Shown here piece by piece: positions 6,868 through 26,039 of a DNA stretch of 26,039 nt; position 1 is the stretch's first letter; the number at the start of each line of letters is the position of its first letter. The stretch comes from a virus (taxonomy: Duplodnaviria; Heunggongvirae; Uroviricota; Caudoviricetes), in IMG/VR virus record IMGVR_UViG_2690315742_000005, positions 1 to 26,039 of that record; one strand, written 5' to 3'. Under the pieces are notes generated by a model. The model was not told the origin of the DNA. It did no database searches and saw only the letters and a list, made by a program, of their open reading frames with translations. The position numbers and the translations under genes are program-made.

Positions 6868-6886
6868 ACTTCGTTTCTCCTCTTAA

Positions 6887-7276: not shown

Positions 7277-7599
7277 ACTTTCAGGCCTCTCTCATGTAAC
7301 CAGTGGGTTGCACGCAGCCTGGCGTTTTCCTCACCGGCAAGCAGTGAGCGGATAATCCCGACCGCCTCGCTGTCGTCGTCCTTCACCGCGGTATGAAGAG
7401 TGATACCCCGGGCCACGCCACGCTTTATCGTGATGACGCCTTTTTTCTCCAGTGCGCGAAGATGTTCCACCGCTGCATTCACTGAACGGTATCCCAGCAT
7501 GGTTGCCACCTCCTGATTGGTTGGCGGGAAGCCACGTTCTTTCTGGTAAGAAATCAGCATATCCAGCACCTGCTGCTGGCATTGAGTTAACGTCGTCAT
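7273..7599 (-). CDS. LexA N-terminal DNA-binding-domain paralog lacking the S24 peptidase domain
   Basis: 108-aa ORF; residues 3-66 (LTQCQQQVLDML...GFPPTNQEVATMLGYRSVNAAVEHLRALEKKGVITIKRGVARGITL) align closely by eye with the E. coli LexA winged-helix domain (LTARQQEVFDLI...[46 protein letters not shown]). No Ala-Gly cleavage site and no Ser/Lys peptidase domain follow. Confidence 0.75.
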   Translation of the reverse strand: MTTLTQCQQQVLDMLISYQKERGFPPTNQEVATMLGYRSVNAAVEHLRALEKKGVITIKRGVARGITLHTAVKDDDSEAVGIIRSLLAGEENARLRATHWLHERGLKV

Positions 7600-9558: not shown

Positions 9559-9791
9559 GCTGCACCTCCGAGATGCTTCATGTTTTTTCCGGAGCGAAAG
9601 GCTATAAGCGGCATACTGACGCGGTAATTACGGCCCAGCGGTTCACAAACCACCTTCTGACATTCACGGTCAACCAGGCTAACACGTAGAACATGCCCTG
9701 CAGGCGTGGTGTACCACTGCCCAACTGTAGGAATTGATGTTTTTTTACGCTGAAGCAAACGGCAAATATTGAGGAACAACGGATTAAGCAT
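9555..9791 (-). CDS. hypothetical small protein (early operon)
   Basis: 78-aa ORF translationally coupled (4-bp overlaps) to both flanking genes; no recognisable motif. Confidence 0.4.
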   Translation of the reverse strand: MLNPLFLNICRLLQRKKTSIPTVGQWYTTPAGHVLRVSLVDRECQKVVCEPLGRNYRVSMPLIAFRSGKNMKHLGGAA

Positions 9792-10620: not shown

Positions 10621-11180
10621 GCGTTAGTTTCTCCACAGACACAAAACGCCACGACGCCCGGAGCTGCACACTCGCGGGCGTCACTCTTTTCTGGAGCGCA
10701 AAAGATTTTGTAGACCAGTGCTGCATGCTCCTGGAGCTTCGAAATTGACAGATACAACTCATCATTAATTGCTGTCTGCTCGTGTGGCTCCACTACCCCA
10801 TCTTCAATTGCCGAACGAATCTGCTTTGAGTAACTCCCGATCTGTTCGATGACTTCCAGCAGGCGCTGGTTTATATCGGCGTTCTCTACTTCCTCAATTT
10901 CAGGAAGCGATACAAACACCCCACCAGCAGACTGTGCGACAGCATCCGCAATGTAGTGAGTGCCAGCCGCGCGCTGTAAAATCATTGCCCATCCCAGCGG
11001 GAAAATCTGATCGCCATCTGCACGAAGGCGGTTGAATAAAGCGTTCTCTGTTACATCCAGCCACTCAGCAGCTTCAGCGTAACCCCCCGGCAACGCCGCG
11101 ATCGTTTTTCTGACAGCTTTCACGTACCACTCAGGCTGTTTTTCTACTTTCCAGTGATGCTTACCCACGGTTAGCCTCAT
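10617..11180 (-). CDS. hypothetical protein in the cII/YdaT position
   Basis: 187-aa ORF immediately downstream of the cro-like gene; functional call is by position only. Confidence 0.4.
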   Translation of the reverse strand: MRLTVGKHHWKVEKQPEWYVKAVRKTIAALPGGYAEAAEWLDVTENALFNRLRADGDQIFPLGWAMILQRAAGTHYIADAVAQSAGGVFVSLPEIEEVENADINQRLLEVIEQIGSYSKQIRSAIEDGVVEPHEQTAINDELYLSISKLQEHAALVYKIFCAPEKSDARECAAPGVVAFCVCGETNA

Positions 11181-11211
11181 CGTTCTGTGGTTAAAAATTG
11201 AAGGTGTTCTG

Positions 11212-11412
11212 TTAATCTTTCGGATAGATATCCGGTCTTAAGTCAGATTTCGTAATTGCACCTGACGTGCATTGCTCAAGTTTTTTAGCCAGCACAAAAC
11301 TGGCTTTTTTATAACCATTGAAAACCAGCCGTAAGTAGCCAGGTGTTGAGCCAACTTTTCCGGCCAACTCGCCCTGCTGTTCTTTGGTTAAAGAGTCCCA
11401 ATACGCTTTCAT
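11212..11412 (-). CDS. Cro-like (YdaS-like) HTH regulator
   Basis: ORF 11212..11517 has an internal ATG at 11412 (MKAYWDSLTKEQQGELAGKVGSTPGYL...) preceded by a GGAGGT RBS 9 nt upstream; small HTH-like protein divergent from the cI-like gene. Confidence 0.6.
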   Translation of the reverse strand: MKAYWDSLTKEQQGELAGKVGSTPGYLRLVFNGYKKASFVLAKKLEQCTSGAITKSDLRPDIYPKD

Positions 11413-11502
11413 ACAATATGTACCTCCGGTATACATATTACATGATTGAAATGAACCTTCAAGATACTTGTACCTTATCGGTACAAAGGTTTTAATTTCG
11501 TT
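11413..11502. promoter_or_regulatory. divergent cro/cI control region with operator-like dyads
   Basis: 90-bp intergenic region containing ACTTGTACC-ttatc-GGTACAAAG (11467..11488) and ATATGTA-N9-TACATAT (11416..11438), both sharing a TGTACC/GGTA(C/T)A core. Confidence 0.45.
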
Positions 11503-12177
11503 ATGAAAACAATCCATGACATCCGGCGGTCTAACGCCAGAAAACTGAGAGATGGTGTTGGCGGAAATTCATCCTTTGCCACCATGATTGATCGCGAGCC
11601 AACCCAAACCAGCAGGTTTATGGGGGATGGCGCTACTAAAAATATCGGTGACAGCATGGCACGGCACATCGAAAAATGTTTCGACCTGCCTGTCGGATGG
11701 CTTGATCAAGAACACCAGACAACGAACATCACAAAAAAACCTGATGTTTCAATCACTAACAAACAAATAACGTTAGTCCCTGTCATATCATGGGTACAGG
11801 CCGGAGCATGGAAAGAAGTTGGCTATTCTGAGGTTGATTTGAGCACAGCAGAAACTTATCCCTGCCCTGTACCCTGTGGCGAAATGACTTATATCTTGCG
11901 GGTGATTGGTGATTCAATGATTGATGAGTACCGCCCTGGAGACATGATTTTTGTTGATCCCGAAGTCCCTGCCTGCCACGGTGACGACGTTATTGCATTG
12001 ATGCACGATACAGGCGAAACTACCTTCAAGCGATTGATAGAAGATGGAACACAGCGTTATCTCAAAGCATTAAACCCAAACTGGCCTGAGCCTTACATTA
12101 AGATTAACGGTAATTGCTCTATAATTGGTACAGTGATTTTCTCGGGAAAACCAAGAAGATACACAATAAAGGCCTAA
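11503..12177 (+). CDS. CI-like prophage repressor (HTH plus S24 LexA-like peptidase domain)
   Basis: 224-aa ORF; C-terminal region VISWVQAGAW...VIGDSMIDEYRPGDMIFVD...FKRL carries the Ala-Gly cleavage site and Ser/Lys dyad pattern of S24 peptidases; divergent from the cro-like gene. Confidence 0.85.
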   Translation: MKTIHDIRRSNARKLRDGVGGNSSFATMIDREPTQTSRFMGDGATKNIGDSMARHIEKCFDLPVGWLDQEHQTTNITKKPDVSITNKQITLVPVISWVQAGAWKEVGYSEVDLSTAETYPCPVPCGEMTYILRVIGDSMIDEYRPGDMIFVDPEVPACHGDDVIALMHDTGETTFKRLIEDGTQRYLKALNPNWPEPYIKINGNCSIIGTVIFSGKPRRYTIKA

Positions 12178-12195
12178 TCAATATTTATGAACCTG

Positions 12196-12222
12196 CTTCG
12201 GCAGGTTTTTTTATACTTGACA
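12196..12222 (+). terminator. rho-independent terminator after the repressor gene
   Basis: Hairpin AACCTGC-TTCG-GCAGGTT followed by TTTTTTTAT, 19 bp after the cI-like stop. Confidence 0.65.
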
Positions 12223-12921
12223 ATGTACCCATGAGATACATAATGTATCCAAAAGAAACATGAGGCAGGCAAGATTCAAACAAAATTTGGTTGTAACACG
12301 GCGTATGGCACATGCGTCGTTAGCGGTCTGGGGACGTTAAAGGGGACAATCCACTCCTTGCTCGGGCAAACAAACCAGGTAGCCGGAATGTGCAAGTCAA
12401 TGATGATGCTGATAAGACGCCTAACCAGCGTGGCGATCCGGTTTGACGCCTGGGAAGAGACCAGGGTGCAACGATGAGGGCATTTATGGAGCCGCGACAA
12501 AGTGTGGTGCCGTAACTGGCTAAGTGCTCTCAGCGTTGTGGTCATCCGCGAAATGGCGCGGCGGTAAGTATGGCTGGGTTACTCTTTCCCCGTTGAGGAC
12601 ACCGGATTGTCAGGTTGACCATACGCCTGAGTGACAACCCCACCACAACAGCCACTGCTTTGGCGGTACCAGTTTGTACACTTGCTTCCGGCTGGTACCG
12701 CTCTTTTTACAAAACAGAGAAGAGCATCACCGGACGACGGGCTCATAACCCAATCCATCCGGGCGGCGGTCACCGCAGGTGTTCTTCTCTGTTTTGTGGA
12801 GAAACTAACCGCCCCTGCGGGGGCATCTATTGAAACGTAATTGCTTAATAATCGCCGGATGGCGAGGGCTTCCTTTTCCCAAAATTCAGCGCAGTGCAGC
12901 GCATATAAAGTGGAGAACGAA

Positions 12922-13458
12922 ATGTCATTTATTAAAACTTTTTCCGGGAAGCATTTTTATTATGACAAGATAAATAAAGACGACATCGTTATTAACGATA
13001 TCGCGGTTTCCCTTTCAAATATCTGTCGCTTTGCTGGTCATCTTTCACACTTCTACAGCGTCGCCCAACATGCGGTGCTTTGCAGCCAGCTGGTACCGCA
13101 GGAATTTGCTTTTGAAGCGTTAATGCATGATGCAACAGAAGCGTATTGCCAGGACATCCCGGCTCCACTGAAACGCCTTCTTCCTGACTATAAACGGATG
13201 GAAGAAAAAATAGACGCCGTAATCCGTGAGAAATACGGGTTACCCCCGGTTATGAGTACACCCGTGAAATATGCCGATCTCATCATGCTGGCAACCGAAC
13301 GCCGCGATCTCGGGCTTGATGATGGCTCTTTCTGGCCTGTGCTGGAAGGTATCCCGGCAACAGAGATGTTCAACGTGATTCCACTGGCTCCAGGCCATGC
13401 CTACGGGATGTTTATGGAACGCTTTAACGAATTATCGGAGTTACGCAAATGCGCATGA
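12922..13458 (+). CDS. HD-domain phosphohydrolase (YfbR-like 5'-deoxynucleotidase-like)
   Basis: ORF 12841..13458; start placed at ATG 12922 (GGAGAA RBS 6 nt upstream). The H..(H) ... HD pattern (AQHAVL ... LMHDATEAY ... PAPLK) parallels YfbR (EHSLQVAMVAH ... MYHDASEVLTGDLPTPVK) as I recall it. Confidence 0.65.
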   Translation: MSFIKTFSGKHFYYDKINKDDIVINDIAVSLSNICRFAGHLSHFYSVAQHAVLCSQLVPQEFAFEALMHDATEAYCQDIPAPLKRLLPDYKRMEEKIDAVIREKYGLPPVMSTPVKYADLIMLATERRDLGLDDGSFWPVLEGIPATEMFNVIPLAPGHAYGMFMERFNELSELRKCA

Positions 13459-13811
13459 ATGTTTTCGAAATGGAAGGGTTTCTTCGCGGGAAATGTGTAC
13501 CGCGAGATCTGAAAGTGAATGAAACAGATGCTGAATACCTGGTACGTAAATTCGATGCGCTTGAAGCTAAATGTGCAGCACTGGAAAACAAAGTAATACC
13601 AGTGTCAGCTGAACTGCCGCCAGCAAATGAAAGTGTTCTGTTATTTGATGCTAATGGAGAAGGCTGGCTGATTGGCTGGCGTTCTCTCTGGTACACCTGG
13701 GGACAAAAAGAAACCGGAGAATGGCAGTGGACATTTCAGGTCTGGGACCTTGAAAACGTCAATATCACTCACTGGGCAGTAATGCCGAAAGCACCAGAGA
13801 CTAAGAAATGA
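13449..13811 (+). CDS. DUF551-like phage protein
   Basis: 120-aa ORF; Trp-rich C-terminal segment (GWLIGWRSLWYTWGQ...EWQWTF...HWAVMP) is reminiscent of DUF551. Confidence 0.45.
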   Translation: MRMNVFEMEGFLRGKCVPRDLKVNETDAEYLVRKFDALEAKCAALENKVIPVSAELPPANESVLLFDANGEGWLIGWRSLWYTWGQKETGEWQWTFQVWDLENVNITHWAVMPKAPETKK

Positions 13812-14023
13812 GCGTAATAAAAACTCATACAGGAATTGTTATCACTCGAGACGGTGAAAAGCGGATGAAATTACATTCGACTGAAACGTCCTGGGTTGCC
13901 GGACGTTGTGAATCCTACGACAAAAAGACTGGTTACCGTTGGGGGGCGCCAAACATGCGCCGCCGTCTGCTCCTGGACAGCATCAGGCCAATTAAACAGG
14001 TAGCAACCAGAGAACAAAATTAA
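13808..14023 (+). CDS. hypothetical small protein
   Basis: 71-aa ORF, ATGA-coupled to the upstream gene; no motif recognised. Confidence 0.4.
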   Translation: MSVIKTHTGIVITRDGEKRMKLHSTETSWVAGRCESYDKKTGYRWGAPNMRRRLLLDSIRPIKQVATREQN

Positions 14024-14082
14024 TTATCAGGACTGGAATTTGATATTACTGCCCGTGTGCAGCGGGCTAAGTGGAGAAACAT

Positions 14083-14289
14083 ATGCTGAACCTCGATTGT
14101 GTTCCTATCTCAACTTATTGCAAAGAAACTGGCGAAACTCCTGAAGCAATAAACAAACGTGTACAGCGCGGTGTTTGGCGTGAAGGTGTTCAGGTTTTAA
14201 AGGTTGAAGGCGTTAAGGAGAGGTGGATTGATCTTAGTGAGGTTGCAAAATGGGCCAGACAAAACTGCTCAAACTACCGCGCGGCGTAA
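14083..14289 (+). CDS. excisionase (Xis-like)
   Basis: ORF 14071..14289; likely start ATG 14083 (GGAGAA RBS upstream). Small basic protein with winged-helix-like KRVQRGVWREGV segment, immediately upstream of and overlapping the integrase gene. Confidence 0.6.
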   Translation: MLNLDCVPISTYCKETGETPEAINKRVQRGVWREGVQVLKVEGVKERWIDLSEVAKWARQNCSNYRAA

Positions 14290-15416
14290 CAATCAGGAAA
14301 CACCGCCAGGGAGAAACGATCAATATAACTTTCACCTACAAAGGAGTTAGATGTCGTGAGCCGCTTTCCAATCTAGAAGTAACACCAAAGAACATTAAAT
14401 ACGCCGAGCGTACACTCGGCGAAATCCATAATAAGATCGAAAGGGGAACATTCATTTATGCAGAATATTTTCCCCGTTCTGCTCGTTTGAAAATTTTTGG
14501 TAATGCTGCTGCAGGCAAAACGGTAAAGATGTACCTGGACGAATATCTTGAAATCTGCGAAACAAGAAAACTTTCACCCTCTACGATTGGTGGCTATAAA
14601 AAATGCCGTAGTGCGTTAGCCTCACTTCACATTTGCCCTGCAAGTGAATTAACACCAGCAACCCTGAAAGCGTGGATTCAAAGCCAGAAAACAACCTTAA
14701 AAACCATTCGCAACCAGTTATCTTTCCTGCGGTCAGCACTTGATGAAGCCGTGACCGATGGGGTACTTCAAATTAACCCCGTATCGTTAGTAACAGCTTC
14801 GCGCTACCAAAGTGATAAGTCAGAAGCAGAAAGCAGCTATGTGGTTGATCCGCTATCACCAGCAGAAGTTGATGCATTATTAGCAGCAGCCGGAAACAAA
14901 CAATGGGAAAATCTGTTCCGGTTCGCCATACATACAGGCCTGCGTAGTTCTGAATTATGTGCCCTTCGATGGCGTGATATCGACTTTGTTGGAAAAACTG
15001 CCCATGTCCAGAGCGCAAGTGTTGTCGGTGTTATCAAAGGGACAAAGACAAAAGCAGGTACTCGTAAAGTTGAACTGACAGAAGAGGCAATGTTGGCGCT
15101 GATAAATCAGAAGCCATTTACATTCATGAAGGATGCTACTGTCTTTGAAGACCCAAAGACCAATAAGCCTTGGGCAAGTGCTGATGCAATAAGGAAAAAA
15201 GCATGGGTGCCAACATTACGAAAAGCAGGTATTCGTTACAGAAACCCATATCAAACCAGGCATACATTCGCCACCCGCCATATCAGCCGGGGAGCGAACC
15301 TGTTTTGGCTTGCAGCTCAAATGGGGCATAAAGGGCCTGAGATGCTTTTCAGGCACTATGGTCGATATCTCAAAGAATACGACGGAAAAAGCTCCATCAA
15401 ATACATTATACAATGA
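14250..15416 (+). CDS. tyrosine integrase (lambda Int family)
   Basis: 388-aa ORF; N-terminal arm-binding-like domain; C-terminal catalytic region with conserved R (TGLRSSELCALRW), HTFATRHISRGANL and GHKGPEMLFRHYGRYL (H-x-x-R ... Y). Confidence 0.9.
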   Translation: MGQTKLLKLPRGVTIRKHRQGETINITFTYKGVRCREPLSNLEVTPKNIKYAERTLGEIHNKIERGTFIYAEYFPRSARLKIFGNAAAGKTVKMYLDEYLEICETRKLSPSTIGGYKKCRSALASLHICPASELTPATLKAWIQSQKTTLKTIRNQLSFLRSALDEAVTDGVLQINPVSLVTASRYQSDKSEAESSYVVDPLSPAEVDALLAAAGNKQWENLFRFAIHTGLRSSELCALRWRDIDFVGKTAHVQSASVVGVIKGTKTKAGTRKVELTEEAMLALINQKPFTFMKDATVFEDPKTNKPWASADAIRKKAWVPTLRKAGIRYRNPYQTRHTFATRHISRGANLFWLAAQMGHKGPEMLFRHYGRYLKEYDGKSSIKYIIQ

Positions 15417-15428
15417 TTATGGCGGCAT

Positions 15429-16058
15429 TTATTGCCGCCCACATAATTCATTATGCCATTTATCCAAGTAACAATCCAATTGTTTTAATGTTTTCAATAC
15501 ATATACAGGCTTACGTGGCGGATGATTTTTTTGAAAAGAATCATATAAATGCATTATGAAATCGACACAAGCACTAGATACATTCTGAGCGCGAAAAACC
15601 CTATATGACTTATTAAAACAATATGATTTCTCACATTCCATAGTAGCTTCATCTATAATATTAGAAAAATACGAAATTGTTATTTTTATCCCCCTCTCAT
15701 CGAGAAGATTAATGTATTTATTTATTTGTATGGCTTTTCCATGAATTGCCGTTAAATATATTTTCGCCGACTGAGTATGCAATCCATTAGAGTTCTTAAA
15801 ATTTTTTTTCTTAAATGGATTAGAATCTGGTGGTGTTGACTTATTAACCCAGTAATCCAGAGACAAATCTGATATTTCGTTTAAAATTTTAGCAATCGCA
15901 TCTATAATCGATTTAGATTCAGAGCGAGTAGCAATCTTCAGTGAATTATTGTAAGTAACAAACCATCCAATAAACACTAAGATAATACTCACAACACTAA
16001 ACATCCATGCGTAAGTGGACACCCCTGCAAGGGTGTCCTTAATATCAACGGTGTTCAA
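15429..16058 (-). CDS. hypothetical membrane protein (third gene of AT-rich cargo operon); start uncertain
   Basis: ORF 15429..16142; predicted TM helix (MFSVVSIILVFIGWFVTY) then Lys/Asn-rich soluble domain; very low GC. Candidate starts: TTG at 16058 (GGAG 5 nt upstream, 1 nt after the upstream stop), ATG at 16004, or ATG at 16142 (would overlap the upstream gene by 83 nt). The 3' end overlaps a hairpin (15423..15441) shared with the convergent int gene. Confidence 0.5.
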   Translation of the reverse strand: MNTVDIKDTLAGVSTYAWMFSVVSIILVFIGWFVTYNNSLKIATRSESKSIIDAIAKILNEISDLSLDYWVNKSTPPDSNPFKKKNFKNSNGLHTQSAKIYLTAIHGKAIQINKYINLLDERGIKITISYFSNIIDEATMECEKSYCFNKSYRVFRAQNVSSACVDFIMHLYDSFQKNHPPRKPVYVLKTLKQLDCYLDKWHNELCGRQ

Positions 16059-16059
16059 A

Positions 16060-16401
16060 TCAACTCCTTTGGAAAGGCTTCCTTTCTGGATTAGCCATTT
16101 CAATATATCTAAAAATTTGATCTTTATAGAACGGCAAATCACTTTTTATAATTAGTTTTGCCTTAATGTCAGCCTTAGGTACACCTTCCTTCCTAACAAG
16201 CCCTCCAAAGGCCTCCTCTAGAAACGAAGAACCAATCCCATGATTTATACCCGTAAAATCTACGACAACCTCACGCTCACCAGATTTTAATGCAGGAACC
16301 AGAAAGTCCTTACGAAAACGCTCAGCACTGTTCGGGCTGTCAGACTTGAACCTTCCAAATGGCATCTTTGAGAAATCCCTTGCTATGACGATGTTAACCA
16401 T
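16060..16401 (-). CDS. STAS-like (anti-sigma-factor-antagonist-like) small protein
   Basis: 113-aa ORF; EVVVDFTGINHGIGSSFLEEAFGGL matches the STAS/SpoIIAA-like pattern (hydrophobic strand, D-F/L-S/T-G-V, then SSGL/SSFL helix); start overlaps the upstream gene stop by 8 nt. Confidence 0.5.
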   Translation of the reverse strand: MVNIVIARDFSKMPFGRFKSDSPNSAERFRKDFLVPALKSGEREVVVDFTGINHGIGSSFLEEAFGGLVRKEGVPKADIKAKLIIKSDLPFYKDQIFRYIEMANPERKPFQRS

Positions 16402-17317
16402 CTTCTCCTCTCCTCGGAACTAATGACCATTCAATCAATGTTCCCGGCATGTACTCAGGTATCCACTCGCATTTGGGAACCTCATTTCTTGAATTATAGC
16501 TGTACTTAACATTCCCTGTGAACACCAAAAGTGATTCTGAATTCGCACAGCCAGACCCTATAGGTCTCTTTATATCCTCAGAACCATTACCACGTCCAGC
16601 GTTAACATATCTGGACTGTCCTCCTGTCAGGGCTGTTGACACAGATGTCACGTCGTCATACCCAGTAAACAACGGAGAGGCTGAAGTAAATGATTTATGT
16701 ATGCCAAGCCCAAGATCATAAATAATAAAGACAACCTTGTCTGTGTCAGGGTTGTACCAACAACTCTGCCACCATCGTTTCCCTTGCATATGCTCTATAG
16801 CACCAGCAAAGTCTGGATGTTCATATGCATGATATGAAACATTCAGCATTGCCTCACTAAGGGCTGAGGAGACCAAAAGATATTGCTCAAATGTGAGAAT
16901 TGCTTTTGAATCAATAAATTCCATCGTTTTAGCCCAATGTTCATACGGTTCCACAGCAGACTGAAAGTACCTGCGTTCCTTAGTAAGAACATCTAATTTA
17001 TCAACTGTATTTGCCATTAGAGCAATCGATAACCCCGTCCCAACAATATATCGATGCCCATACGGATTATTTTCTTTTTTCGGCCAAATGAATCGAAGAC
17101 TACTTGTGCCGAATGCCATAAAATAAGCCCTACTGATGATAGCAAACAACCTTACGCTAGCTGCAGCACCTGCATATTCTACTGTCGAAAAGTCTATAAC
17201 CACTTGTCCAGATGCTCTCGCAAGGGTGTTATCAACTGAGTTCAAAAACTTAGCTGTAACACGGCGATCAGAATCATTATAAAGGCACAATCTTTTTGGG
17301 GAAATCAACAGTTCCAT
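16394..17317 (-). CDS. GHKL/HATPase_c-type ATPase or Ser-kinase-like protein with possible N-terminal STAS-like region
   Basis: 307-aa ORF with GAGGTG RBS 6 nt upstream. Candidate Bergerat-fold motifs: N-box-like LSEAMLNVSYHAYEH, G1-like FIIYDLGLGIHK (D-x-G-x-G), G2-like NAGRGNGSE. N-terminal QVVIDFSTVEYAGAAASVRLF resembles a STAS-like strand-helix. Low GC. Confidence 0.5.
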   Translation of the reverse strand: MELLISPKRLCLYNDSDRRVTAKFLNSVDNTLARASGQVVIDFSTVEYAGAAASVRLFAIISRAYFMAFGTSSLRFIWPKKENNPYGHRYIVGTGLSIALMANTVDKLDVLTKERRYFQSAVEPYEHWAKTMEFIDSKAILTFEQYLLVSSALSEAMLNVSYHAYEHPDFAGAIEHMQGKRWWQSCWYNPDTDKVVFIIYDLGLGIHKSFTSASPLFTGYDDVTSVSTALTGGQSRYVNAGRGNGSEDIKRPIGSGCANSESLLVFTGNVKYSYNSRNEVPKCEWIPEYMPGTLIEWSLVPRRGEDG

Positions 17318-17458
17318 GGCGACACCTCAGCCAAATCTGTCTAGTCAAAAATGAGCAAAATAAATTACTATAAAATAATGACGAAGTGCACGTTTTTGAT
17401 ACGCAAAGATTGCAGGAAGAAATTAAACTTTATTTTTCATACACATAAATTCAATCAT

Positions 17459-17488
17459 ACGCGGGTTCAACTCCCGCCAGCTCCACCA
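17459..17488 (+). other. attachment-site core: 30-bp copy of the 3' end of tmRNA (ssrA), ending CCA
   Basis: ACGCGGGTTCAACTCCCGCCAGCTCCACCA matches the 3' terminus of E. coli tmRNA as I recall it (...GGACGCGGGUUCAACUCCCGCCAGCUCCACCA); upstream sequence is AT-rich and not tmRNA-like, so this is a partial copy as generated by site-specific integration. Confidence 0.6.
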
Positions 17489-17498
17489 AATAAATCAA

Positions 17499-17531
17499 GG
17501 GGTTACGTGAAAGCGTAGCCCCTTTTTCTTT
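17499..17531 (+). terminator. rho-independent terminator candidate immediately after the tmRNA 3'-end copy
   Basis: Hairpin GGGGTTACG-TGAAA-GCGTAGCCCC (one G-U pair) followed by TTTTTCTTT. Confidence 0.45.
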
Positions 17532-17611
17532 GGTAGTGGCGGCAAAATGGCGACAGACTTTTGCGTCCATCTTGCCTGTCGCCATCTTGAAATCATGCAA
17601 AGAGGTTTCAC

Positions 17612-18094
17612 ATGGAAGAACTTCACTTTGTTTACATCAATGCAAATGGTCGTATCGCTGTTCACTCTATACAGAGCATCAGTTATAGCGAAAATCATAT
17701 ACAGGGCATTTGTAAGAACACCGATCGAATAAAAACCTTCCGAAAAGACCGCATTCTTAAACAGTACGATTCACCAGAACAAGCCATTCAGGAATGCGCG
17801 TCATTCCTCCCCGAAAGCTACTCACATCTCACTAAGCAGTCTGGTCCGAAAAAAAATACATTCGATGTGTGTTTCACCGGATTTAAGAAAGCAGATAAAG
17901 AAAGATTGGTTGATAAGGCGAATGAACAAGGATTAACGGTAAGAACCTCTATAACCCAAAGCCTTCAGATGCTCTGTTGCGGTTACAATGCAGGCCCATC
18001 AAAAGTATCGGCAGCCAGGATGAAAGGCACAATCATCATAGATGAGCCTGGCTTTATACATTTTCTTGAAACGGGTGAGATTCCAGATGAATAA
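17612..18094 (+). CDS. BRCT-domain protein (cargo gene between att core and ogr)
   Basis: 160-aa ORF with AAGAGG RBS; C-terminal 80 aa (FDVCFTGFKKADKERLVDKANEQGLTVRTSITQSLQMLCCGYNAGPSKVSAARMKGTIIIDEPGFIHFL) follows the BRCT pattern seen in NAD-ligase C-termini (F-TG, G-V..S.t....l..G.naGsK..kA...g..ii.E..F); N-terminal 75 aa unassigned; AT-rich. Confidence 0.5.
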   Translation: MEELHFVYINANGRIAVHSIQSISYSENHIQGICKNTDRIKTFRKDRILKQYDSPEQAIQECASFLPESYSHLTKQSGPKKNTFDVCFTGFKKADKERLVDKANEQGLTVRTSITQSLQMLCCGYNAGPSKVSAARMKGTIIIDEPGFIHFLETGEIPDE

Positions 18095-18120
18095 AAACCT
18101 GCCGTAGCAGGTTCTCTTTC

Positions 18121-18339
18121 TCAAAAATTCATATGCCCCTGACCACCTGGCAATGGATGTGGAGGAGCAGTAGCAATCAGTGCGGGTGTCACAATAAACC
18201 GGACCACTGTTTCATGAGTAACAAAAGTGCTCCCGCAGTTAATATTTTGGCACTGGCAGTAACGCTCTTTGGTGCTTTCAGTTACTTGAAAACTGCTCCT
18301 TGTGTGTGCCGCATGACCACACTTTGGACAATTCATCAT
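18121..18339 (-). CDS. ogr: Ogr/Delta-type zinc-finger late transcription activator
   Basis: ORF 18121..18384; from the internal Met (MMNCPKCGHAAHTRSS...TKERYCQCQNINCGSTF...PHPLPGGQ) it is 72 aa and matches P2 Ogr (CPLCQHAAH...TKERYHQCQNVNCSATF...PHPLPSGQ) including the four zinc-ligand Cys. Confidence 0.85.
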   Translation of the reverse strand: MMNCPKCGHAAHTRSSFQVTESTKERYCQCQNINCGSTFVTHETVVRFIVTPALIATAPPHPLPGGQGHMNF

Positions 18340-18407
18340 ATCCAGATCCCTACCTTTGCTATCAGAATCATTGTAATGATACACAAAATATCAATATTGA
18401 GAACACT

Positions 18408-19508
18408 TTATTCCATTTCAAGATCATCAATCTTCACTTCGAGTTCAATACTGGTTGTAAAACCGTTATCCGGGCTGACGGTATGTGTCAGAGTCGTAAT
18501 GGTCCATTCCGCATCATCTATCGGCTGTTTAAAACCACTGACCTTCACAGGCATTTCCGTGTAGAGATCTGCCCGCCCTTCTGCCAGTTGTAGCGAAAAT
18601 GACGCAACGCCGCGTTGCAGGCGTTCCCACTGCATTTTCGCCGCTCGTTCGGCGTTGCTCCGGTTGGCATAAGTGCGATTAAGTACCAGCACGTTTTCAT
18701 CCGTACCCACCAGGTAATCGCCCTGCTTCGCTTCTGGCTCTTTCTTCTGCTTCTTAGTTCTGCGCTTACGCTTCACCGTGGTGCTTTCTTTCTTCGCAGG
18801 TTCGCGGGTATGCAACCAGCTGGCAATTACGCCCGTGTAGGCTCCGCGATCTGCCAGGGTAAATCGGTGACTGTCGCCGTCCTTGCGTGTGATAGTGATC
18901 ACTGGCAGAGGTTTACCAGTGGCGCTTTTGCCCTGCCCCTGCCGGATGAATAACAGATTGCCATTTTTCACCGACGCGATGGCACCGTACTGTCGCGCCA
19001 GCCGCATCAGAAAACTGCCGTCACTCTCATTAGTCTGGTCTATATGCTCCACGGGCTTATCCGACAGGTCTTTACCCAGTGCCATCTTCAGCTTGTGCCG
19101 CGCGGCTATTTCCTTCACCACTTCCCCGACGGTGGTCTTATGCCACGATTTTTCACGGCGGGTATTCAGCGTTTCCCGAAAATCAGCACTTCGCGCCCGG
19201 ATAGTCAGGCGGTCCGGTGCGCCAGTGTGTTCAATCTCGTCCACTGTGAATGCCCCTTTCGGGAAAAGCGGCTGCCCCTTCCAGCCCAGCGCCAGCGTAA
19301 TAACCGCACCACGGCGCGGCAGCACGATTTTTCCGTCAGCGTCATCCAGCTCCAGATCAAGCTGGTCCGCTTCAAAGCCCCGGTTATCCGTCAGCGTCAA
19401 ACTCATCAGGCGGTTATCCAGCACAGTGGTGATATCCCTGCCCTCAATACTGATGCTGAATGCGGGAGTTTTGTTGCCTTTGTTAAGCAGTTCAGAGCTG
19501 AAATTCAC
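18408..19508 (-). CDS. D: P2-like tail protein D
   Basis: 366-aa ORF directly downstream of U and upstream of ogr, the conserved P2 order FI-FII-E-T-U-D-ogr; size and character fit gpD. Confidence 0.8.
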   Translation of the reverse strand: MNFSSELLNKGNKTPAFSISIEGRDITTVLDNRLMSLTLTDNRGFEADQLDLELDDADGKIVLPRRGAVITLALGWKGQPLFPKGAFTVDEIEHTGAPDRLTIRARSADFRETLNTRREKSWHKTTVGEVVKEIAARHKLKMALGKDLSDKPVEHIDQTNESDGSFLMRLARQYGAIASVKNGNLLFIRQGQGKSATGKPLPVITITRKDGDSHRFTLADRGAYTGVIASWLHTREPAKKESTTVKRKRRTKKQKKEPEAKQGDYLVGTDENVLVLNRTYANRSNAERAAKMQWERLQRGVASFSLQLAEGRADLYTEMPVKVSGFKQPIDDAEWTITTLTHTVSPDNGFTTSIELEVKIDDLEME

Positions 19509-19990
19509 GACAGCAGCCCTCCCACCGTTTTACTGATATCGCTTAAGGCAGACGTTGCCGTGTCCTGCAAATTATTCAGTTGCGCACTGAGATCACCGAA
19601 CATATCGGACAGGGATTCATCCACTCGTTTGAGCGACAGGGTGAACTCAATCCGGCGCGGCATACCGTCGCGGAAAAACTCCGTTTTAGTCTGATTCAGT
19701 CCCTCAATCACATACATGCCGTAAATCGTGCCGCTGCCTTCAATCAGGGGCCATGCTTTCCCCTGTTCTGCCATCTGCTCCAGTGCCAGCAACGACAGCC
19801 TGCCGCCTGTTATTTCCGGCATAAGAACACCGGAAAGCGTCAGCATGTCGTTTTCCGGTCCCAGAAACTGCGTGGACGGACGTCGGTTTACCCGACTGTT
19901 TGCCGCATGTCGCCAGCTGCGTTGATACTGCAGTTCCTGATACGGAACGGTGCGCAGCATAAACACGTACAATCCCAGCACCATCATCAT
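19505..19990 (-). CDS. U: P2-like tail protein U
   Basis: 161-aa ORF between T and D with 4-bp overlaps; size matches P2 gpU. Confidence 0.8.
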   Translation of the reverse strand: MMMVLGLYVFMLRTVPYQELQYQRSWRHAANSRVNRRPSTQFLGPENDMLTLSGVLMPEITGGRLSLLALEQMAEQGKAWPLIEGSGTIYGMYVIEGLNQTKTEFFRDGMPRRIEFTLSLKRVDESLSDMFGDLSAQLNNLQDTATSALSDISKTVGGLLS

Positions 19991-22900
19991 GCGTCGTATC
20001 CCCCCTGATCGCTGTAGTTACTCCTGGCTTTTGCCTTCAGCCTGCGTTCACGTTCATCAAGCTGGCGTGCCACCTCCCGCGCAATATCCTGCGCACTTTG
20101 TCCTGGCTGCGTCTGAATGATGATCTGCGTCGGTGCCTCAATCCGTTGAACGAGCGGCACAGTGGCTGCGCGACTCACAATTGCTTCTCCACCTTTCGCG
20201 GGAAGTGCCAAAGGGTGCAACGGTGGAAGCTCTGCTGGCGCGGCAGCAACGCCCATCATTCCGGCAACAACGGCAGCCAGTGCAGCTGTATTTCTCCGGC
20301 TGGTCACATTTGCCGGGCCGTTAACAATTTCCGGCCCGTTTTCACCGACGATGCCAAACTGCCCGCGCGGGATATACCCACCGCTGTCATACATCCCCGC
20401 AAAGCCATATCCCCATGATGGAAAACCACCCGATGGCATCATCACTTTACCGTCTGCATTCACCGTCGCAGGTTGCTGACGCGTCACGCTTTCCGGCAGT
20501 TTTGCCTTTGCGGCCTCTTTACTGACAATGCCGAGCTTCTCCAGCAACCAGGAAACGCCGGATTTCAGGGAGTCCAGCGGATGCATGACCATATTCAGCC
20601 CTTCCGCCAGTGCCTCCCCGAATCGCCGCCCCATTGCCGCTGCGCTCTGCAGTTCGGCAGAGGTCGACTTAACGGGCGTCAGCAGATCAGTAAACCAGCC
20701 CCACAGCGCCTGCACTTTGTCGCCAATCCACTGGAACACGGGCTTAAGCGGTTCGAACGCTGCACTGATGGGACCTGCCGCCGCTTTGAATCCTTCCACC
20801 ACGCCACCGAGAAATGCGGTGATGGGTTGCCAGTATTTCCAGACAACCAGCGCCACGCCCGCCAGTGCAGTAACCACAAGACCTATCGGACTGAGCAGAG
20901 CACCTAACAGACCAGATATGGCATACAGGGCAACGCGCAGCATCGCCAGCGGGCCGGATGCGAGCACACGCAGCACCGCGCCTGCGGCAGCCAGCCCACC
21001 GCGTAGTGCTGCCAGTGGATTCATAAACATCACAGCAACAGCACGTAAACCGGATAATCCAGACCGCAAAAGTGCAACCGGCGCACCTGCTACAGTTTTC
21101 AGGACATTCCCCATCAGTGATACCGTGCGACGCAAAGACGACAACGGAGCAGTAAGTAAACCCGCTGCGTTGCCCGATGAAGCAAGCCCGCGTCGCAGCA
21201 GTGCCAGTGGTGCGCCAGCCAGCCAGGACAACGCGCTGCTGGTTCGAGTTACTGCTGCCGTAACGGAAGGTAACGTTTTGATACCCAGCACAGAGAATCC
21301 CAGACGGATCACTGCCAGCGGCCCCAGCACTGCAGCCAGCGCCACCGCTAAGGTGCCGAGGCCTACGGTAACCGCAGCCACAACAGCCACTACTTTCATC
21401 AGTGTGCCTGTCAGTTCCGGGTTAGCTTCCACCCAGCGGCGCAACGCCCCCGTGACGCTTTTCACCGTGTACAGAATATCCATCAGCGGCTGGCGCAGCG
21501 TTTCGCCCAGGCTGCTGAAGGTGTTCTGCGCTCCGGTTTTGACCAGCAACCACTGAGCAGAAAGTGAGTCTTTGTTGATGTCGGATTCTTTCTGCATCGA
21601 ACCGAGCGCATCATTGCCCGCTGTCAGTTTTAGCTGGCGCTGTAGTTCCGGCAGGTTGTTTGCCAGTTTCGCCGCGTCATCGCCAAACTCTTTACCAAAC
21701 AACATGGTCATGGCAGACAGACGCTTGTCCTGCGGCAGTGCGTTCACCTTCTCCAGTACACGCTGGATGGTTCCCATCGCATCCTTCGTCATCTGCTTTT
21801 CAATCACTTCAGGATTGAGTTTCAGCAGATTCATCCCTTCAAAGAAACTCTTGCTTTGCATGGTGGCAATGGACAATTCACGCACCATCGCGTTTGCTGC
21901 ACTGGCTGCAACCTCCGGCGCAGCGCCCAGTGTCAGAAAGGTGGAACCCAGTGCCGCCGCTTTACGATAATCCAGACGGTCAGCCACACCGCCCAGACGT
22001 TGCATCACATCAATGATGTCCGCCCCTTTCGACATGGCGTTATCATCCAGATAGTTCAGCGCATCGCCGAGCTGTTCAATATTGCGGGTAGGTATTTTGT
22101 AGAGCTGGGCGATTTTCCCCAGACTTTCTGACAGTTCATCCGCTGGCAGCTCAAAGGCTGTTGCCGCCTTTGCTGCCGTACTGGCGAAGGCCAGCAGGTC
22201 ACGTTTCTGGTCTTCCCAGCTGTCGTCAGGGTTTGCCACGTTCATGCGCGCACCACCTTCAACCAGTGCAGCGAAGTCCACCGCACCGTTTTCCATCGGC
22301 AACTGTTCGCTGGCAGCCTTGATGGCATCCTGCATTTCGTAAAAACGCGCAGTGCGGTTGCCATTATCGTCACGCAGACCATTGACCTGCTTTGCCACAC
22401 CTTTCATGGCATCTTCCATGCTGGCATAGCTTTTTACCGCCGCCATCACTGGCGCGCCCATTGCCAGCCCTGCAGCCGTGGTGGTGGCTCCGGCTCCTGC
22501 GATACGATCGCGCACTTCAAGCCGTCTTGAGTATTGTTCTCTGGCAGCGTTCATCCGTGCCTGTTGTTCACCCAGACGTTTAAGTGCTTTTTGCTGGCCC
22601 TCCAGTGCCTGCCTTGTTTCTTCAGCATTTTTCTTAAGTTCTCGCTGGGCACTACTGAGTTGCCTGGTATCAATCCCTGATTCTTTAAGTGCCTGACGTT
22701 GTCTCTGGACCGCCCCCAACAAGCCGTTATAGGTCTGCTGAAGTTCCTGTACTCGTGTTTTGGCCTGACTGAATAACTTTGCCTGCGCGGCGGTTGGCCT
22801 GTTAGTGGCAGCAAATTGTGTGGCGAGTTTTGCCGCCTCTTCGCGGGCTGCGTTCAGGTTGTTGGCTGTTATGGCTAGTTGCGAGCGCGTCTTGCGAAAC

Positions 22901-23064
22901 TCATCAATTCTGCCAGCCTGCTTATTCAGTTCTTTGAGGCTGTTTCTGGTATTCTGAATTGCGCCAGCCAGCTCTTTCGAACTGGCCTGTGCAGCACGGA
23001 ATGGGCGGGTGAGTTTGTCAACCGCATTAAGAATGACCTGCAGACGCAGGTTGTTATCACTCAT
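19987..23064 (-). CDS. T: tail tape measure protein (gpT-like)
   Basis: 1025-aa ORF; N-terminal coiled-coil (Ala/Gln/Arg-rich) region, central hydrophobic Ala/Leu/Gly-rich repeats, C-terminal Gly-rich part; follows E/E' as in P2. Confidence 0.9.
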   Translation of the reverse strand: MSDNNLRLQVILNAVDKLTRPFRAAQASSKELAGAIQNTRNSLKELNKQAGRIDEFRKTRSQLAITANNLNAAREEAAKLATQFAATNRPTAAQAKLFSQAKTRVQELQQTYNGLLGAVQRQRQALKESGIDTRQLSSAQRELKKNAEETRQALEGQQKALKRLGEQQARMNAAREQYSRRLEVRDRIAGAGATTTAAGLAMGAPVMAAVKSYASMEDAMKGVAKQVNGLRDDNGNRTARFYEMQDAIKAASEQLPMENGAVDFAALVEGGARMNVANPDDSWEDQKRDLLAFASTAAKAATAFELPADELSESLGKIAQLYKIPTRNIEQLGDALNYLDDNAMSKGADIIDVMQRLGGVADRLDYRKAAALGSTFLTLGAAPEVAASAANAMVRELSIATMQSKSFFEGMNLLKLNPEVIEKQMTKDAMGTIQRVLEKVNALPQDKRLSAMTMLFGKEFGDDAAKLANNLPELQRQLKLTAGNDALGSMQKESDINKDSLSAQWLLVKTGAQNTFSSLGETLRQPLMDILYTVKSVTGALRRWVEANPELTGTLMKVVAVVAAVTVGLGTLAVALAAVLGPLAVIRLGFSVLGIKTLPSVTAAVTRTSSALSWLAGAPLALLRRGLASSGNAAGLLTAPLSSLRRTVSLMGNVLKTVAGAPVALLRSGLSGLRAVAVMFMNPLAALRGGLAAAGAVLRVLASGPLAMLRVALYAISGLLGALLSPIGLVVTALAGVALVVWKYWQPITAFLGGVVEGFKAAAGPISAAFEPLKPVFQWIGDKVQALWGWFTDLLTPVKSTSAELQSAAAMGRRFGEALAEGLNMVMHPLDSLKSGVSWLLEKLGIVSKEAAKAKLPESVTRQQPATVNADGKVMMPSGGFPSWGYGFAGMYDSGGYIPRGQFGIVGENGPEIVNGPANVTSRRNTAALAAVVAGMMGVAAAPAELPPLHPLALPAKGGEAIVSRAATVPLVQRIEAPTQIIIQTQPGQSAQDIAREVARQLDERERRLKAKARSNYSDQGGYDA

Positions 23065-23493
23065 CGTTGGCCCCGCTTCTCTGAATCGCTTTATACCGCC
23101 ATTCCAGCACTTCGGTCAGCGGCATAACGTCAGTAACGGATGGCGGCCAGTGAAAAATGGTGGCGATATCTGCCACCAGATCGTCAACCGTCAGGCTGTC
23201 GGTAAACCGGCAAGCACCGACTTCTTCAACAAAAAAGTGACAACCTCAACCGACATGGCAGTGAGATCTGCCGGGTCCATCTCTGCAATTTCCTGTGCAG
23301 TCAGTGCCGGGCTGGAGATGCGGGGGATCACGGTCATCATCGCGTTCACATCCATATCCATAATGGCCTGCAGGCGTGTACCGCGTAGCGCACCAGACTG
23401 CGGTTTACGCAGCACAATTTCGGTAATTTCTGTTTTACCGCGCTTGATAGGGGTATCCAGTTGAATGGTCTTTTCAGTCTGCTTATCGCTCAT
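23057..23493 (-). CDS. E+E' fusion product via programmed -1 translational frameshift (slip site at 23230..23237)
   Basis: On the minus strand gene E reads ...GTC ACT TTT TTG TTG AAG...; the -1 frame after TTTTTTG stays open (...VEEVGACRFTDSLTVDDLVADIATIFHWPPSVTDVMPLTEVLEWRYKAIQRSGANDE) and ends at a TGA (23059..23057) overlapping the T start codon, the P2 E/E' arrangement. Hand translation. Confidence 0.6.
23191..23493 (-). CDS. E: tail assembly chaperone E
   Basis: 100-aa acidic ORF between FII and T; slippery CTTTTTTG near its 3' end, as in P2 gene E. Confidence 0.8.
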   Translation of the reverse strand: MSDKQTEKTIQLDTPIKRGKTEITEIVLRKPQSGALRGTRLQAIMDMDVNAMMTVIPRISSPALTAQEIAEMDPADLTAMSVEVVTFLLKKSVLAGLPTA

Positions 23494-23547
23494 TTTGTTG
23501 TCCTGTGAATTGGGTTCTGGCGCGGAATCCCGCGCCGTTCAGATACA

Positions 23548-24063
23548 TCAGAGGCCGAGGGCGTTGCGGTGCGCTTCCATCAGGTCCACACCGTCCACAA
23601 TTTCCACCATGTTGATAAGGTCCACTTCATAGAGCACCTCACCATTGATGGTCAGCTTCGCGTAGCTGTTGGTACTGGTCACTTTGGTGGTGTTGCTTTC
23701 GCCCGTCTTCCACTCACCGGAATCCACTTCTTTGTGACGTCCACGTACCACAAGCTCCACGGGCTGCACTTCCCCGGTATCGTCACGCTGGATAGAGCCG
23801 GTAAAGCGCAGCTGGATGCCATCCACCGTGGCTTTGCCCATCTGCTTAAACAGCAGCAGTTCAGTACCACCAATGGAAAATTCTGTATCCAGTGCACTGT
23901 CATCCAGTCCCAGATCCACATCCACCGCCCCCGGCATACCGCCGCCGCGATACTTCTCATATTTGCGGGTGAATTTCGGCAGCGTCAGCGACTCAACGAT
24001 TCCCTGCCAGTTGTTCCCGTCGTTAAACAGGTTCAGATGTTTTAATTTGCGTGGTAAAGCCAT
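23548..24063 (-). CDS. FII: major tail tube protein FII
   Basis: 171-aa ORF; N-terminus MALPRKLKHLNLFNDGNNWQG and position downstream of the sheath gene fit P2 FII. Confidence 0.85.
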   Translation of the reverse strand: MALPRKLKHLNLFNDGNNWQGIVESLTLPKFTRKYEKYRGGGMPGAVDVDLGLDDSALDTEFSIGGTELLLFKQMGKATVDGIQLRFTGSIQRDDTGEVQPVELVVRGRHKEVDSGEWKTGESNTTKVTSTNSYAKLTINGEVLYEVDLINMVEIVDGVDLMEAHRNALGL

Positions 24064-24072
24064 GTTGTCCCC

Positions 24073-25245
24073 TTACGCGCTGACCTGGCTGGCGAAATTC
24101 ACCAGGTACTGATCGGTGATGCGCTGGCGCAGCATCAGATTTTCAAGTGGCGGCACTGGCGTGTAGTCGTAGTCGATGGTGAGTTTTCCGGCTTTAAGCG
24201 TGTCTTTGTCGTTCACCGACTCATCCAACCAGCAATCACCACCAATGAGATAGCCCTGACTGACCAGGTTGCGCATTTTGGCGCGGATACCTTCGATAAT
24301 GTCGCGGGCCAGCGACGGGTTCAGCGGTTTGTCCACCGCCCACATATGTGCTTCTGCCATTGTGTCCATCAGTACCTGCGCTGTGCGGGTGTAGTTTTCG
24401 AAGGCAAAAAGCGGATCATCGCTCAGACAGCGGGAACCCCAGAAGCGGAAACCATCCTTGCGCACAAGCGTGGTGACGTCGTTCTGGTTAAGCAGTCCCG
24501 CATCGGTTGCCGGGTCCTGCAGATCCCAGAACACATCAGCAGAAATTCCGGTGACACCGTTCACGCCCACGTTGGACAGGCTTTTGTGCCACCCGGTCTG
24601 CTCATCAATTTTGGCACGCAGACCAAGCGCACGGGCGGTGGCATATGCCGTTGCTTCGGCATTCAGCACCGTGTCCCAGCCAGTAAAGTCGGGCCAGATC
24701 AGCATCCCTTCGCGCTGGCTGAAGTTTTCACGGTAAGTGATTGCCTCCTGCACAGTCTTGCAGCCATACGCTGACAGGTAAGCAAACCCACGCAGGCTTT
24801 GCGCCACACTCAGCAACTCAGTAGCTACCGCCTTGGTGTCGTGACCTGGTACACCCAGAATGCGCGGTTTAACGCCGAGCTGTGACTGAGCAGATAACAG
24901 AGCTTTCATGCCTGTTTTTTTACCTTCAGCAGTCACTGCGCCGATGATATTGGTCGTGGTTTCTTCTTCCGTTTCACCCTGCGGCACACGCACAACAACG
25001 GTCACGGGTTTTGCCTGGTCAGCGATGGCATCCAGCGAACGGGCCAGCGTGCCGGACTCACCCGCTTTACCGCTGGCAGTCAGCACATCAGTGATCAGCA
25101 CGGGTTTATTAAGAGGAAACATTTTTGCATCGGCATCATCGCCCGTGCAGACCATACCCACGATGGCGGTGCTCACCGTGGTAATGGATCGGGTGCCTTC
25201 GTTGACTTCAACAACGCGCACCCCGTGGTGGTAATCCTGAGCCAT
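24073..25245 (-). CDS. FI: contractile tail sheath protein FI
   Basis: 390-aa ORF; long identical stretches to P2 FI as I recall it ([112 protein letters not shown]). Confidence 0.9.
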
Positions 25246-25387
25246 AGTGGCGAACCTCCTGATTGGATTAGGCTTCGCCCTATGTTGAAGTGATTGTGCC
25301 TGACAAACAGCTAAGCGCAGTTGTACCGTTATTCACACAAAATGACGGTATTTGTCTGCTTTCAGGGATAATCAAAATAAAGCTGAT

Positions 25388-25960
25388 TCAGGGAGATTTA
25401 TTGCTCTTATTTGCCGGAAGTTTTCGATAAATGGTAGAAACGCCTACATCAAAAATCAGTGCAATACGCTGTCTTGATTCTCCGGCCTCGAGTAAACGTC
25501 CAATCTGTGCCCACTGTTCAGTGGTCAACTTAGGACGGCGTCCACCTACTCTGCCTTTAGCACGAGCTGCAGCCAGCCCTGCCCGGGTACGTTCAACTAT
25601 CAGTTCGCGTTCCATTTCAGCCAGGGCACCCATGACATGAAAAAAGAAACGGCCCATTGGGGTACTGGTATCAATACTGTCAGTCAGGCTTCGGAAATTC
25701 ACACCACGCTGGCGCAACTCTTCTATCAGCGTAACAAGATGCCGCATACTGCGCCCCAACCTGTCCAGCTTCCAGACAACCAGCGTGTCTCCTGCCAATA
25801 GTGTCCTGAGCAGTTTTTTAAGCCCCGGTCTGTCGGACTTAGTGCCACTGATTTTGTCCTCAAAAATCCGCTCACATCCCGCGCAGTTCAGCGCATTACG
25901 TTGCAAATCGGTGTTCTGGTCATTTGTTGACACGCGTACATAGCCAATAAGCATGATCAT
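25388..25960 (-). CDS. serine-recombinase DNA invertase (Gin/Hin/Pin/Cin family)
   Basis: 190-aa ORF; N-terminal catalytic domain MLIGYVRVSTNDQNTDLQ (active-site Ser in RVST.DQ) and C-terminal HTH (GESRQRIALIFDVGVSTIYRK); located between tail sheath and the expected tail-fibre region. Confidence 0.9.
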   Translation of the reverse strand: MIMLIGYVRVSTNDQNTDLQRNALNCAGCERIFEDKISGTKSDRPGLKKLLRTLLAGDTLVVWKLDRLGRSMRHLVTLIEELRQRGVNFRSLTDSIDTSTPMGRFFFHVMGALAEMERELIVERTRAGLAAARAKGRVGGRRPKLTTEQWAQIGRLLEAGESRQRIALIFDVGVSTIYRKLPANKSNKSP

Positions 25961-26009
25961 CTCCCTGAATAAAAATAGGGGATGATGCCAGTTAGCCGTA
26001 ATCGCTGCA

Positions 26010-26035
26010 TTTTCTTAAACGTTGGTTTGGGAGAA
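26010..26035. promoter_or_regulatory. candidate invertase crossover site (gix/hix-like imperfect 26-bp dyad) at the edge of an invertible segment
   Basis: TTTTCTTAAACG-TT-GGTTTGGGAGAA: half-sites share TT.TC...AAAC(C), resembling hixL TTCTTGAAAACC-AA-GGTTTTTGATAA as I recall it; about 50 bp upstream of the invertase start. Confidence 0.45.
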
Positions 26036-26039
26036 GGCG

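Follow-up and report, generated by a model that had tools for sequence, protein, structure and literature searches.

The window analysed here, a stretch of 26,039 nucleotides, breaks off at its right end within the late genes of a P2-like prophage. The outermost gene (25388..25954, minus strand; 188 amino acids plus stop) encodes a DNA invertase, a small serine recombinase of the Gin/Cin type. Ahead of it lie a leader (25955..26009, minus strand) with a GGGAG ribosome-binding site and, at 26010..26035, a 26-bp dyad that stops 4 nt (GGCG) short of the edge of the window. Beyond the invertase gene, the minus strand carries in succession the genes for the tail sheath (24073..25245; a P2 FI homologue matching Pfam Phage_sheath_1, Phage_sheath_1C and Gp18_domIII_N), the tail tube (23548..24063), the tail chaperones, the tape measure protein (19987..23064; 1025 amino acids), gpU and gpD (18408..19508), and finally ogr (18121..18384; Ogr_Delta). 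This is the P2 order FI-FII-E/E'-T-U-D-ogr with Ogr-type late control, and the region is colinear with annotated P2-like Escherichia coli prophages and with phage Cartapus (Peduoviridae, Elveevirus). The slot between G, the gene for tail-fibre assembly, and FI is taken up by the invertase module; in P2 it contains the cargo gene fun(Z). A TGT-N12-ACA dyad on the minus strand at 25322..25339, TGTGTGAATAACGGTACA, precedes the sheath start codon by 94 nt and is positioned like the Ogr activator site of the P2 late promoter pF; on the strength of this position, the invertase gene would lie upstream of a putative F promoter and outside the sheath-tube operon. When 25200..26039 was scanned with a sigma-70 consensus, nothing resembling a promoter for the invertase was detected.

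The open reading frame as listed (25388..25960, minus strand, 190 amino acids) starts 6 nt further upstream than the gene described above. The second ATG, at 25954 (MLIGYVRVS...), is most likely the authentic start, because the RefSeq coding sequence of identical prophages is 567 nt long and begins at the equivalent ATG, because residue 1 of Gin aligns with residue 3 of the listed frame, and because the GGGAG Shine-Dalgarno sequence is properly spaced before it. Pfam recognizes a Resolvase domain (residues 5-137, E 1e-52) followed by HTH_7 (residues 140-183, E 1e-15), and the best match to a solved structure is to Mu Gin (3uj3, E 3.6e-92). Counted from 25954, the protein is 73.9% identical to Gin and 76.3% identical to Cin of P1; it is 98.4% identical to a Cartapus protein labelled “DNA-invertase, Mu phage Gin invertase homolog”, and the RefSeq entry for it in the near-identical prophages L001 and L004 is WP_001535207.1. 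The frame is intact, with all the catalytic and regulatory residues retained. The nucleophilic serine is at the position equivalent to Gin S9 and Hin S10, and the protein is wild type at the histidine and the methionine that are altered in the Fis-independent mutants Hin-H107Y (PMC4817059) and Gin-M114V (PMC3575834). With Hin numbering taken from the alignment to chain 1hcr, the DNA-binding domain of Hin, it carries K, K and R at the equivalents of Hin 47, 48 and 51, and Q, R and L at those of Gln151, Arg154 and Leu155; the basic residues at the former positions and the latter three are uniquely conserved in Fis/enhancer-dependent invertases (McLean et al., PMC3798978, Figure 8).

Enzymes of this family are activated by Fis, which binds to an enhancer located near the 5' end of the gene that encodes the invertase (PMC3575834, PMC3798978). 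Nucleotides 19-90 of the gene (25865..25936, minus strand) are a putative recombinational enhancer, or Fis-binding region, designated by homology only: they align without gaps with nt 19-90 of cin, annotated in P1 as “enhancer of Cin-mediated C-segment inversion”, with 78% identity to cin and 72% to gin, and the same stretch encodes a conserved protein segment. Identity at third codon positions, compared with gin and cin, shows no excess in nt 19-90 over the rest of the gene (0.38-0.50 versus 0.40-0.41), in a comparison of three sequences that is underpowered. Two 15-mers of the form G-N13-C occur at gene nt 22-36 and 71-85, the Fis motif being bounded by G and C (PMC4784862); when a strict Fis-like regular expression with Y-R steps was applied, the distal 15-mer alone matched. 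By analogy with Gin, Cin and Hin, and given the enhancer alignment, the G/C-bounded 15-mers and the Fis-contact residues, inversion probably depends on Fis from the host, bound to an enhancer in the initial 90 nt of the gene.

The dyad at the end of the window reads TTTTCTTAAACG TT GGTTTGGGAGAA, with an outer half at 26010..26021, a core at 26022..26023 (TT on the plus strand, AA on the minus strand) and an inner half at 26024..26035; the two half-sites are symmetrical at 8 of 12 positions. A degenerate consensus, TTNTCNNAAACCNNGGTTTNNGANAA, was built solely from the gix sites of Mu and the cix sites of P1 as given in annotated phage records, and was searched for with up to 3 mismatches allowed. 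It matched the 26-kb window once, at 26010..26035 and with 1 mismatch, against 0.01 matches expected from shuffled sequences. Of its 26 positions, the site shares 17 with gix and 19 with each of cixL and cixR. A spacer of 67 nt separates its core from the invertase ATG; the corresponding spacer in Mu, from the gixR core to gin, measures 66 nt. By sequence and placement, the dyad is a gix/cix-type crossover site, the one proximal to the invertase. The preliminary description of this DNA had recognized a Gin/Hin/Pin-type serine recombinase between the sheath gene and the place where tail-fibre genes were expected, together with an imperfect 26-bp dyad resembling hix and gix sites about 50 bp upstream of it. 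The enzyme can now be called Gin/Cin-type from its Pfam domains, its match to 3uj3 and its 74-76% identity to the two prototypes, and the slot is that between G and FI; the dyad was found exactly where it had been placed, 55 nt upstream of the ATG at 25954 and 49 nt from the first ATG, and its likeness to gix gains from its being the sole consensus match in the window and from its Mu-like position.

The last 16 nt of the window (26024..26039, plus strand) form the beginning of the invertible segment, namely the start of a promoterless, silent alternative C-terminal cassette for the tail fibre: they read GGT TTG GGA GAA GGC G, or G-L-G-E-G. In identical prophages, RefSeq places here a gene (“phage tail protein” or “gp53-like domain-containing protein”) whose ATG, corresponding to 25985 on the plus strand, lies in the leader separating the invertase gene from the crossover site, and whose frame crosses the site. 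The frame called from 25985 is the silent cassette rather than a gene that has a start of its own, and its start codon is therefore most likely an annotation artefact.

The window itself holds one site and 4 nt beyond it, and the partner site is known from near-identical genomes. The sequence was extended through draft E. coli assemblies that encode exactly the same 1025-residue tape-measure protein (n=6). Among these, L009 matches window positions 17459..26039 (8.6 kb) at 99.95%, the final GGCG included, and L011 is 100% identical over 7.6 kb leftward from the site. As for complete E. coli genomes, about 1650 of 5426 carry related DNA, and 669 do so over most of a query covering the invertase, sheath and tube genes; homology typically ends at the site (query positions 2529-2539 of 2540), the best match among these complete genomes is 99.9% identical, and none of them matches through the last base of the window.

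Extension into L009 brings the rest of the system into view. In 23 kb of this locus there are exactly two consensus sites (0.02 expected), at 5173-5198 and 7030-7055; they are inverted relative to each other, lie 1855 bp apart and both have the AA/TT core. The partner site reads TTCTCACATACC TT GGTTTGGGAGAA (on the plus strand of the window, TTCTCCCAAACCAAGGTATGTGAGAA), so that the outer halves differ between the window-type site and the fibre-side site, the latter having GGTATGTGAGAA as its outer half. Past the end of the window, the L009 sequence runs on as GGCGCTCCAGCT..., and the far end of the segment, in reverse complement, is ...GGGAGAAGCGGCAAAACGG. The partner site falls at codon 350 of a gene for a 474-residue tail-fibre protein with an N-terminal Phage_tail_fib and a C-terminal Gp53-like_C domain. 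Following the phage gene order, the segment contains the expressed fibre tip, a chaperone gene of the Caudo_TAP type (146 amino acids), a second Caudo_TAP gene on the opposite strand (197 amino acids) and, also on the opposite strand, a promoterless fibre C-terminus that ends at the invertase-side site; the two chaperone genes are convergent. The silent frame runs on as GLGEGAPAIGVPFFWPSEAMPNT... and is the expressed C-terminus of a 507-residue fibre in L011. The constant part of the fibre thus comprises residues 1-350, ending in ...GLLTYLGLGE, and is continued either by AAKRDVGNGQ..., giving the gp53-like tip of the 474-residue protein, or by GAPAIGVPFFWPSE..., giving the 507-residue form; no Pfam domain was found in the GAPAIGVPFFW... 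cassette. An invertible tail-fibre segment had been predicted to begin at the window edge, with an inverted partner site and alternative fibre C-termini to be sought to the right. Its first 16 nt are indeed present in the window and the remainder is seen in L009, where the partner site lies 1855 bp on and the genes downstream are a fibre gene, two chaperone genes and an alternative C-terminus. The prophages L001, L002, L003 and L005 likewise have two inverted sites with an identical core. In L010, whose tape-measure protein is identical, the invertase-side site (around 7030..7055) is a one-base variant with TTCTCCTAAACC as its inner half, and the silent fibre fragment has no gene call.

The segment is found in both orientations. 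Between the cores, the 1855 bp of L009 and L011 are 100% identical only when one of the two is reverse-complemented, while the flanks are 99.95% identical: L009 and L011 are one prophage in two orientations. The complete chromosomes of strains N10 (L003) and 23CRST038 (L005) provide a second pair, in which the 1971 bp between the cores are 100% identical in reverse complement and 25% identical when compared directly, the 2-kb flanks match at 100%, and the strands that encode the two chaperone proteins are swapped. In both pairs the inversion breakpoints fall exactly at the 2-bp core. Two junction types also occur among the complete genomes, in 10 and 28 genomes, respectively. From the sequence at its end, the window is in the L009 state, with the gp53-like tip expressed and the GAPAIGVPFFW... 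cassette silent beside the invertase gene.

Taken together, these findings lead us to regard the end of the window as the edge, on the invertase side, of a two-site Gin-type inversion switch carried by a P2-like (Peduoviridae) E. coli prophage, a reading to which we would assign a probability of roughly 90%. In this switch, the 188-residue invertase would bind as dimers to two 26-bp sites, one at 26010..26035 and the other about 1.86 kb beyond the window, in inverted orientation, at codon 350 of the tail-fibre gene H. Both sites would be cut at their identical AA/TT cores, half of the resulting tetramer would be rotated by 180 degrees, and religation of the ends would leave the segment flipped; dimer binding to each 26-bp site, phosphoserine-linked cleavage of the core, 180-degree subunit rotation and religation are the established steps in this family (PMC3575834, PMC3798978). 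As the segment carries two convergent cassettes, in each of which a fibre C-terminus is paired with its own assembly chaperone, the 350-residue constant N-terminal part is fused in frame to one or the other of two receptor-binding tips. We infer that flipping takes place in the strain from which this window derives. That the two tips are distinct and come with their own chaperones, together with the precedents of Mu and P1, suggests that they would confer different host ranges, and the progeny is likely to be a mixture with two host ranges.

The alternative that fares best is that the window represents an orphan remnant: with its partner site or fibre gene lost, or the prophage otherwise defective, the invertase and the site would be genuine but would have nothing left to switch. 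Such losses do occur: in L004, which is 99.9% identical over the invertase-sheath region, the outer half-site and the core are joined to unrelated DNA; the inner half-site has gone, as have the entire segment and some 10 kb of late genes. The window, moreover, cannot by itself reveal its partner site. However, L004 diverges immediately after the core, whereas the window keeps an intact inner half-site, and the GGCG that follows agrees with L009 and L014, both of which have a complete segment and a partner site. With the invertase frame intact as well, down to its catalytic and regulatory residues, we hold a remnant to be quite improbable.

A multi-site shufflon, with at least three crossover sites and more than two fibre variants, is a still less probable arrangement. 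Plasmid p15B is an example of such a system. A locus with three repeats and four variants has been described in a P2-like prophage (PMC4272514), and the segments of the relatives are mosaic in content, with gp53-like, collar-type and other cassettes distributed among L001, L002, L003 and L009 and with lengths of 1845, 1529, 1971 and 1855 bp, respectively. Against this stands the count of sites, which is exactly two in the 23 kb of L009; the pattern search found two sites only in L001, L003 and L005.

The two-site switch must also be weighed against the idea that the orientation differences arose by RecA recombination or assembly error, the dyad being simply a short inverted repeat. The comparison is one between isolates rather than within a single culture, and some of the assemblies are draft. 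Yet L003 and L005 are complete chromosomes, and in each of two independent pairs the break coincides exactly with the core of a gix/cix-like site adjacent to a gene for a Gin homologue. Furthermore, the inverted sequence common to both sites extends over only about 15-16 bp (the inner half-site, the core and one or two flanking bases), and repeats of this length are too short for efficient RecA recombination. The shortness of the repeat and the position of the breakpoints point to a site-specific enzyme rather than to general recombination, and we give this alternative almost no credence. Hardly any weight, either, can be given to the possibility that the protein is a transposon or plasmid resolvase, or a general prophage recombinase, for although its catalytic domain bears the Pfam name “Resolvase” and the gamma-delta and Tn3 resolvases are also matched, Gin scores far higher (310 bits, versus 122 for gamma-delta resolvase), residues unique to invertases are present (PMC3798978), and the protein is associated with a single 26-bp site in a tail-fibre gene context, not with a three-subsite res.

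By every feature tested, the locus is a member of the Gin/Cin/Pin/Hin family, the enhancer being assigned by homology only. Its alternative fibre C-termini, which come with cognate chaperones and join a constant N-terminus in frame at the crossover site, place it with the phage tail-fibre switches of the Mu G, P1 C and e14 P type. The organization is that of the Mu G segment: the enzymes are of the same family, a fibre gene with a constant N-terminus is followed by a chaperone gene, an inverted second chaperone gene and an inverted alternative fibre C-terminus; next comes a crossover site and, after it, the invertase gene, whose transcription leads away from the segment. However, the Mu segment has a length of about 3 kb, as against 1.86 kb here, and is bounded by a pair of identical gix sites with a GA core, whereas here the outer halves differ and the core is AA; the module here also belongs to a P2-like phage and lies between G and FI. 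With the C segment of P1, the locus shares the closer of the Gin/Cin enzymes (76.3% identity), the AA core, the agreement with cix at 19 of 26 positions, an outer half-site in cixR, GGTATTGGATAA, that resembles the fibre-side GGTATGTGAGAA, and an annotated enhancer to which the start of the present gene can be aligned. The P1 segment differs in its length (4.2 kb) and in the placement of cin, which is read towards the segment and whose 3' end overlaps the crossover site; here, as in Mu, the site is upstream of the gene. The Hin system of Salmonella, which governs flagellar phase variation, is of the same mechanistic class and is alike in its 26-bp hix sites and its Fis-contact residues; its enhancer, bound by Fis near the 5' end of the recombinase gene, would have a counterpart in the putative enhancer here (PMC3798978). 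In that system, however, hin is situated within its own segment and inversion moves a promoter, whereas here the invertase gene lies outside and coding 3' ends are exchanged.

Further parallels are offered by phages of the same kind. Phage Cartapus shares the position of the module and the gene order, in addition to the near-identical invertase, and the P2-like loci of E. coli E2348/69 share the phage type and the module position. Cassette content varies among these P2-like loci, whose segments are mosaic. Fin of Salmonella phage Fels-2 is a comparable invertase system, and Kutsukake et al. reportedly described two DNA invertases in Salmonella in 2006. Flipping was detected and quantified within cultures at two P2-like loci of E2348/69, one of which is the three-repeat, four-variant shufflon mentioned above (Goldberg et al., PMC4272514), and it has been reported in a P2-like (P88-type) prophage of ST131 isolates (preprint, bioRxiv 10.1101/2022.05.07.487787). 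In view of these reports, of the RefSeq entry WP_001535207.1 and of the “Gin homolog” label in Cartapus, the switch, although correctly read, is already known, and the locus matters little for discovery. It is of use in annotation, since there are two forms of the fibre protein of this prophage, and differences at this locus between assemblies of one strain may have a biological cause. It could also serve as a compact natural two-state switch or as a marker of within-strain heterogeneity.

The differing lengths of the segments and their mosaic cassettes imply that tips and chaperones have been exchanged between prophages as modules bounded by crossover sites. Since near-identical crossover sites recur in several P2-like prophages of one genome, it is conceivable, if unlikely, that the invertase recombines sites of different prophages, or pseudo-sites, bringing about cassette exchange and large chromosomal inversions or deletions. 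A preprint describes fibre DNA moving from one prophage to another in ST131. If the invertase does act in this manner, and if the strain holds a second such prophage, 26010..26035 would be a possible hot spot for genome rearrangement. L004 and L013 provide hints of such activity, as both could have arisen by action of the invertase on non-cognate sites. At the junction in L004 (8492..8620; NZ_CP148385.1), TTTTCTTAAACG TT is retained and is followed by the half-site-like CGTTTCGAACAG and then by unrelated DNA; the late genes missing from this prophage are those from capsid to fibre. The fact that the break is exactly at the core suggests a rearrangement mediated by the invertase with a pseudo-site. 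In L013 (4542..7677; GCA_019202505.1), a 1837-bp segment is found between the invertase genes of two P2-like prophages. The two invertases are 81% identical as proteins and each has its own outer half-site; the configuration could be the product of recombination between prophages (a large inversion) or of misassembly across a repeated segment.

The P2-like prophage is not alone in the window. Homology to L009 begins at 17459, and the left 17.4 kb lie outside this prophage. Positions 1..15416 belong to a lambdoid prophage (KilA-N, DUF968, YfdQ and antitermination genes) that ends with a tyrosine integrase gene at 14250..15416 on the plus strand. The starting point of the L009 homology therefore indicates that the two prophages stand almost back to back. 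No tRNA or tmRNA gene was found in the window, and the chromosomal flank of the best complete-genome match showed no match to window positions 1..18409. In L009-L014, the P2-like prophage adjoins smpB.

Between the two prophages, a cluster of three open reading frames of low GC content (0.37-0.42) occupies 15429..17317 on the minus strand. One of the products (237 amino acids) weakly matches a PADLOC “2TM effector” (E 0.006), another (113 amino acids) has a STAS-like DUF4325 domain, and the third (307 amino acids) weakly matches HATPase_c_2. PADLOC and Pfam scans of the cluster gave weak matches only and identified no known defence system; the cluster may represent accessory or defence cargo. 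Lastly, a frame of 160 codons beside ogr at the end of the P2-like prophage (17612..18094, plus strand) shows a weak BRCT match and a partial match to PADLOC PDC-S48. L009-L014 have a 160-residue frame in the same place, with no Pfam match on record, and its counterpart in Cartapus is labelled “putative exonuclease”.
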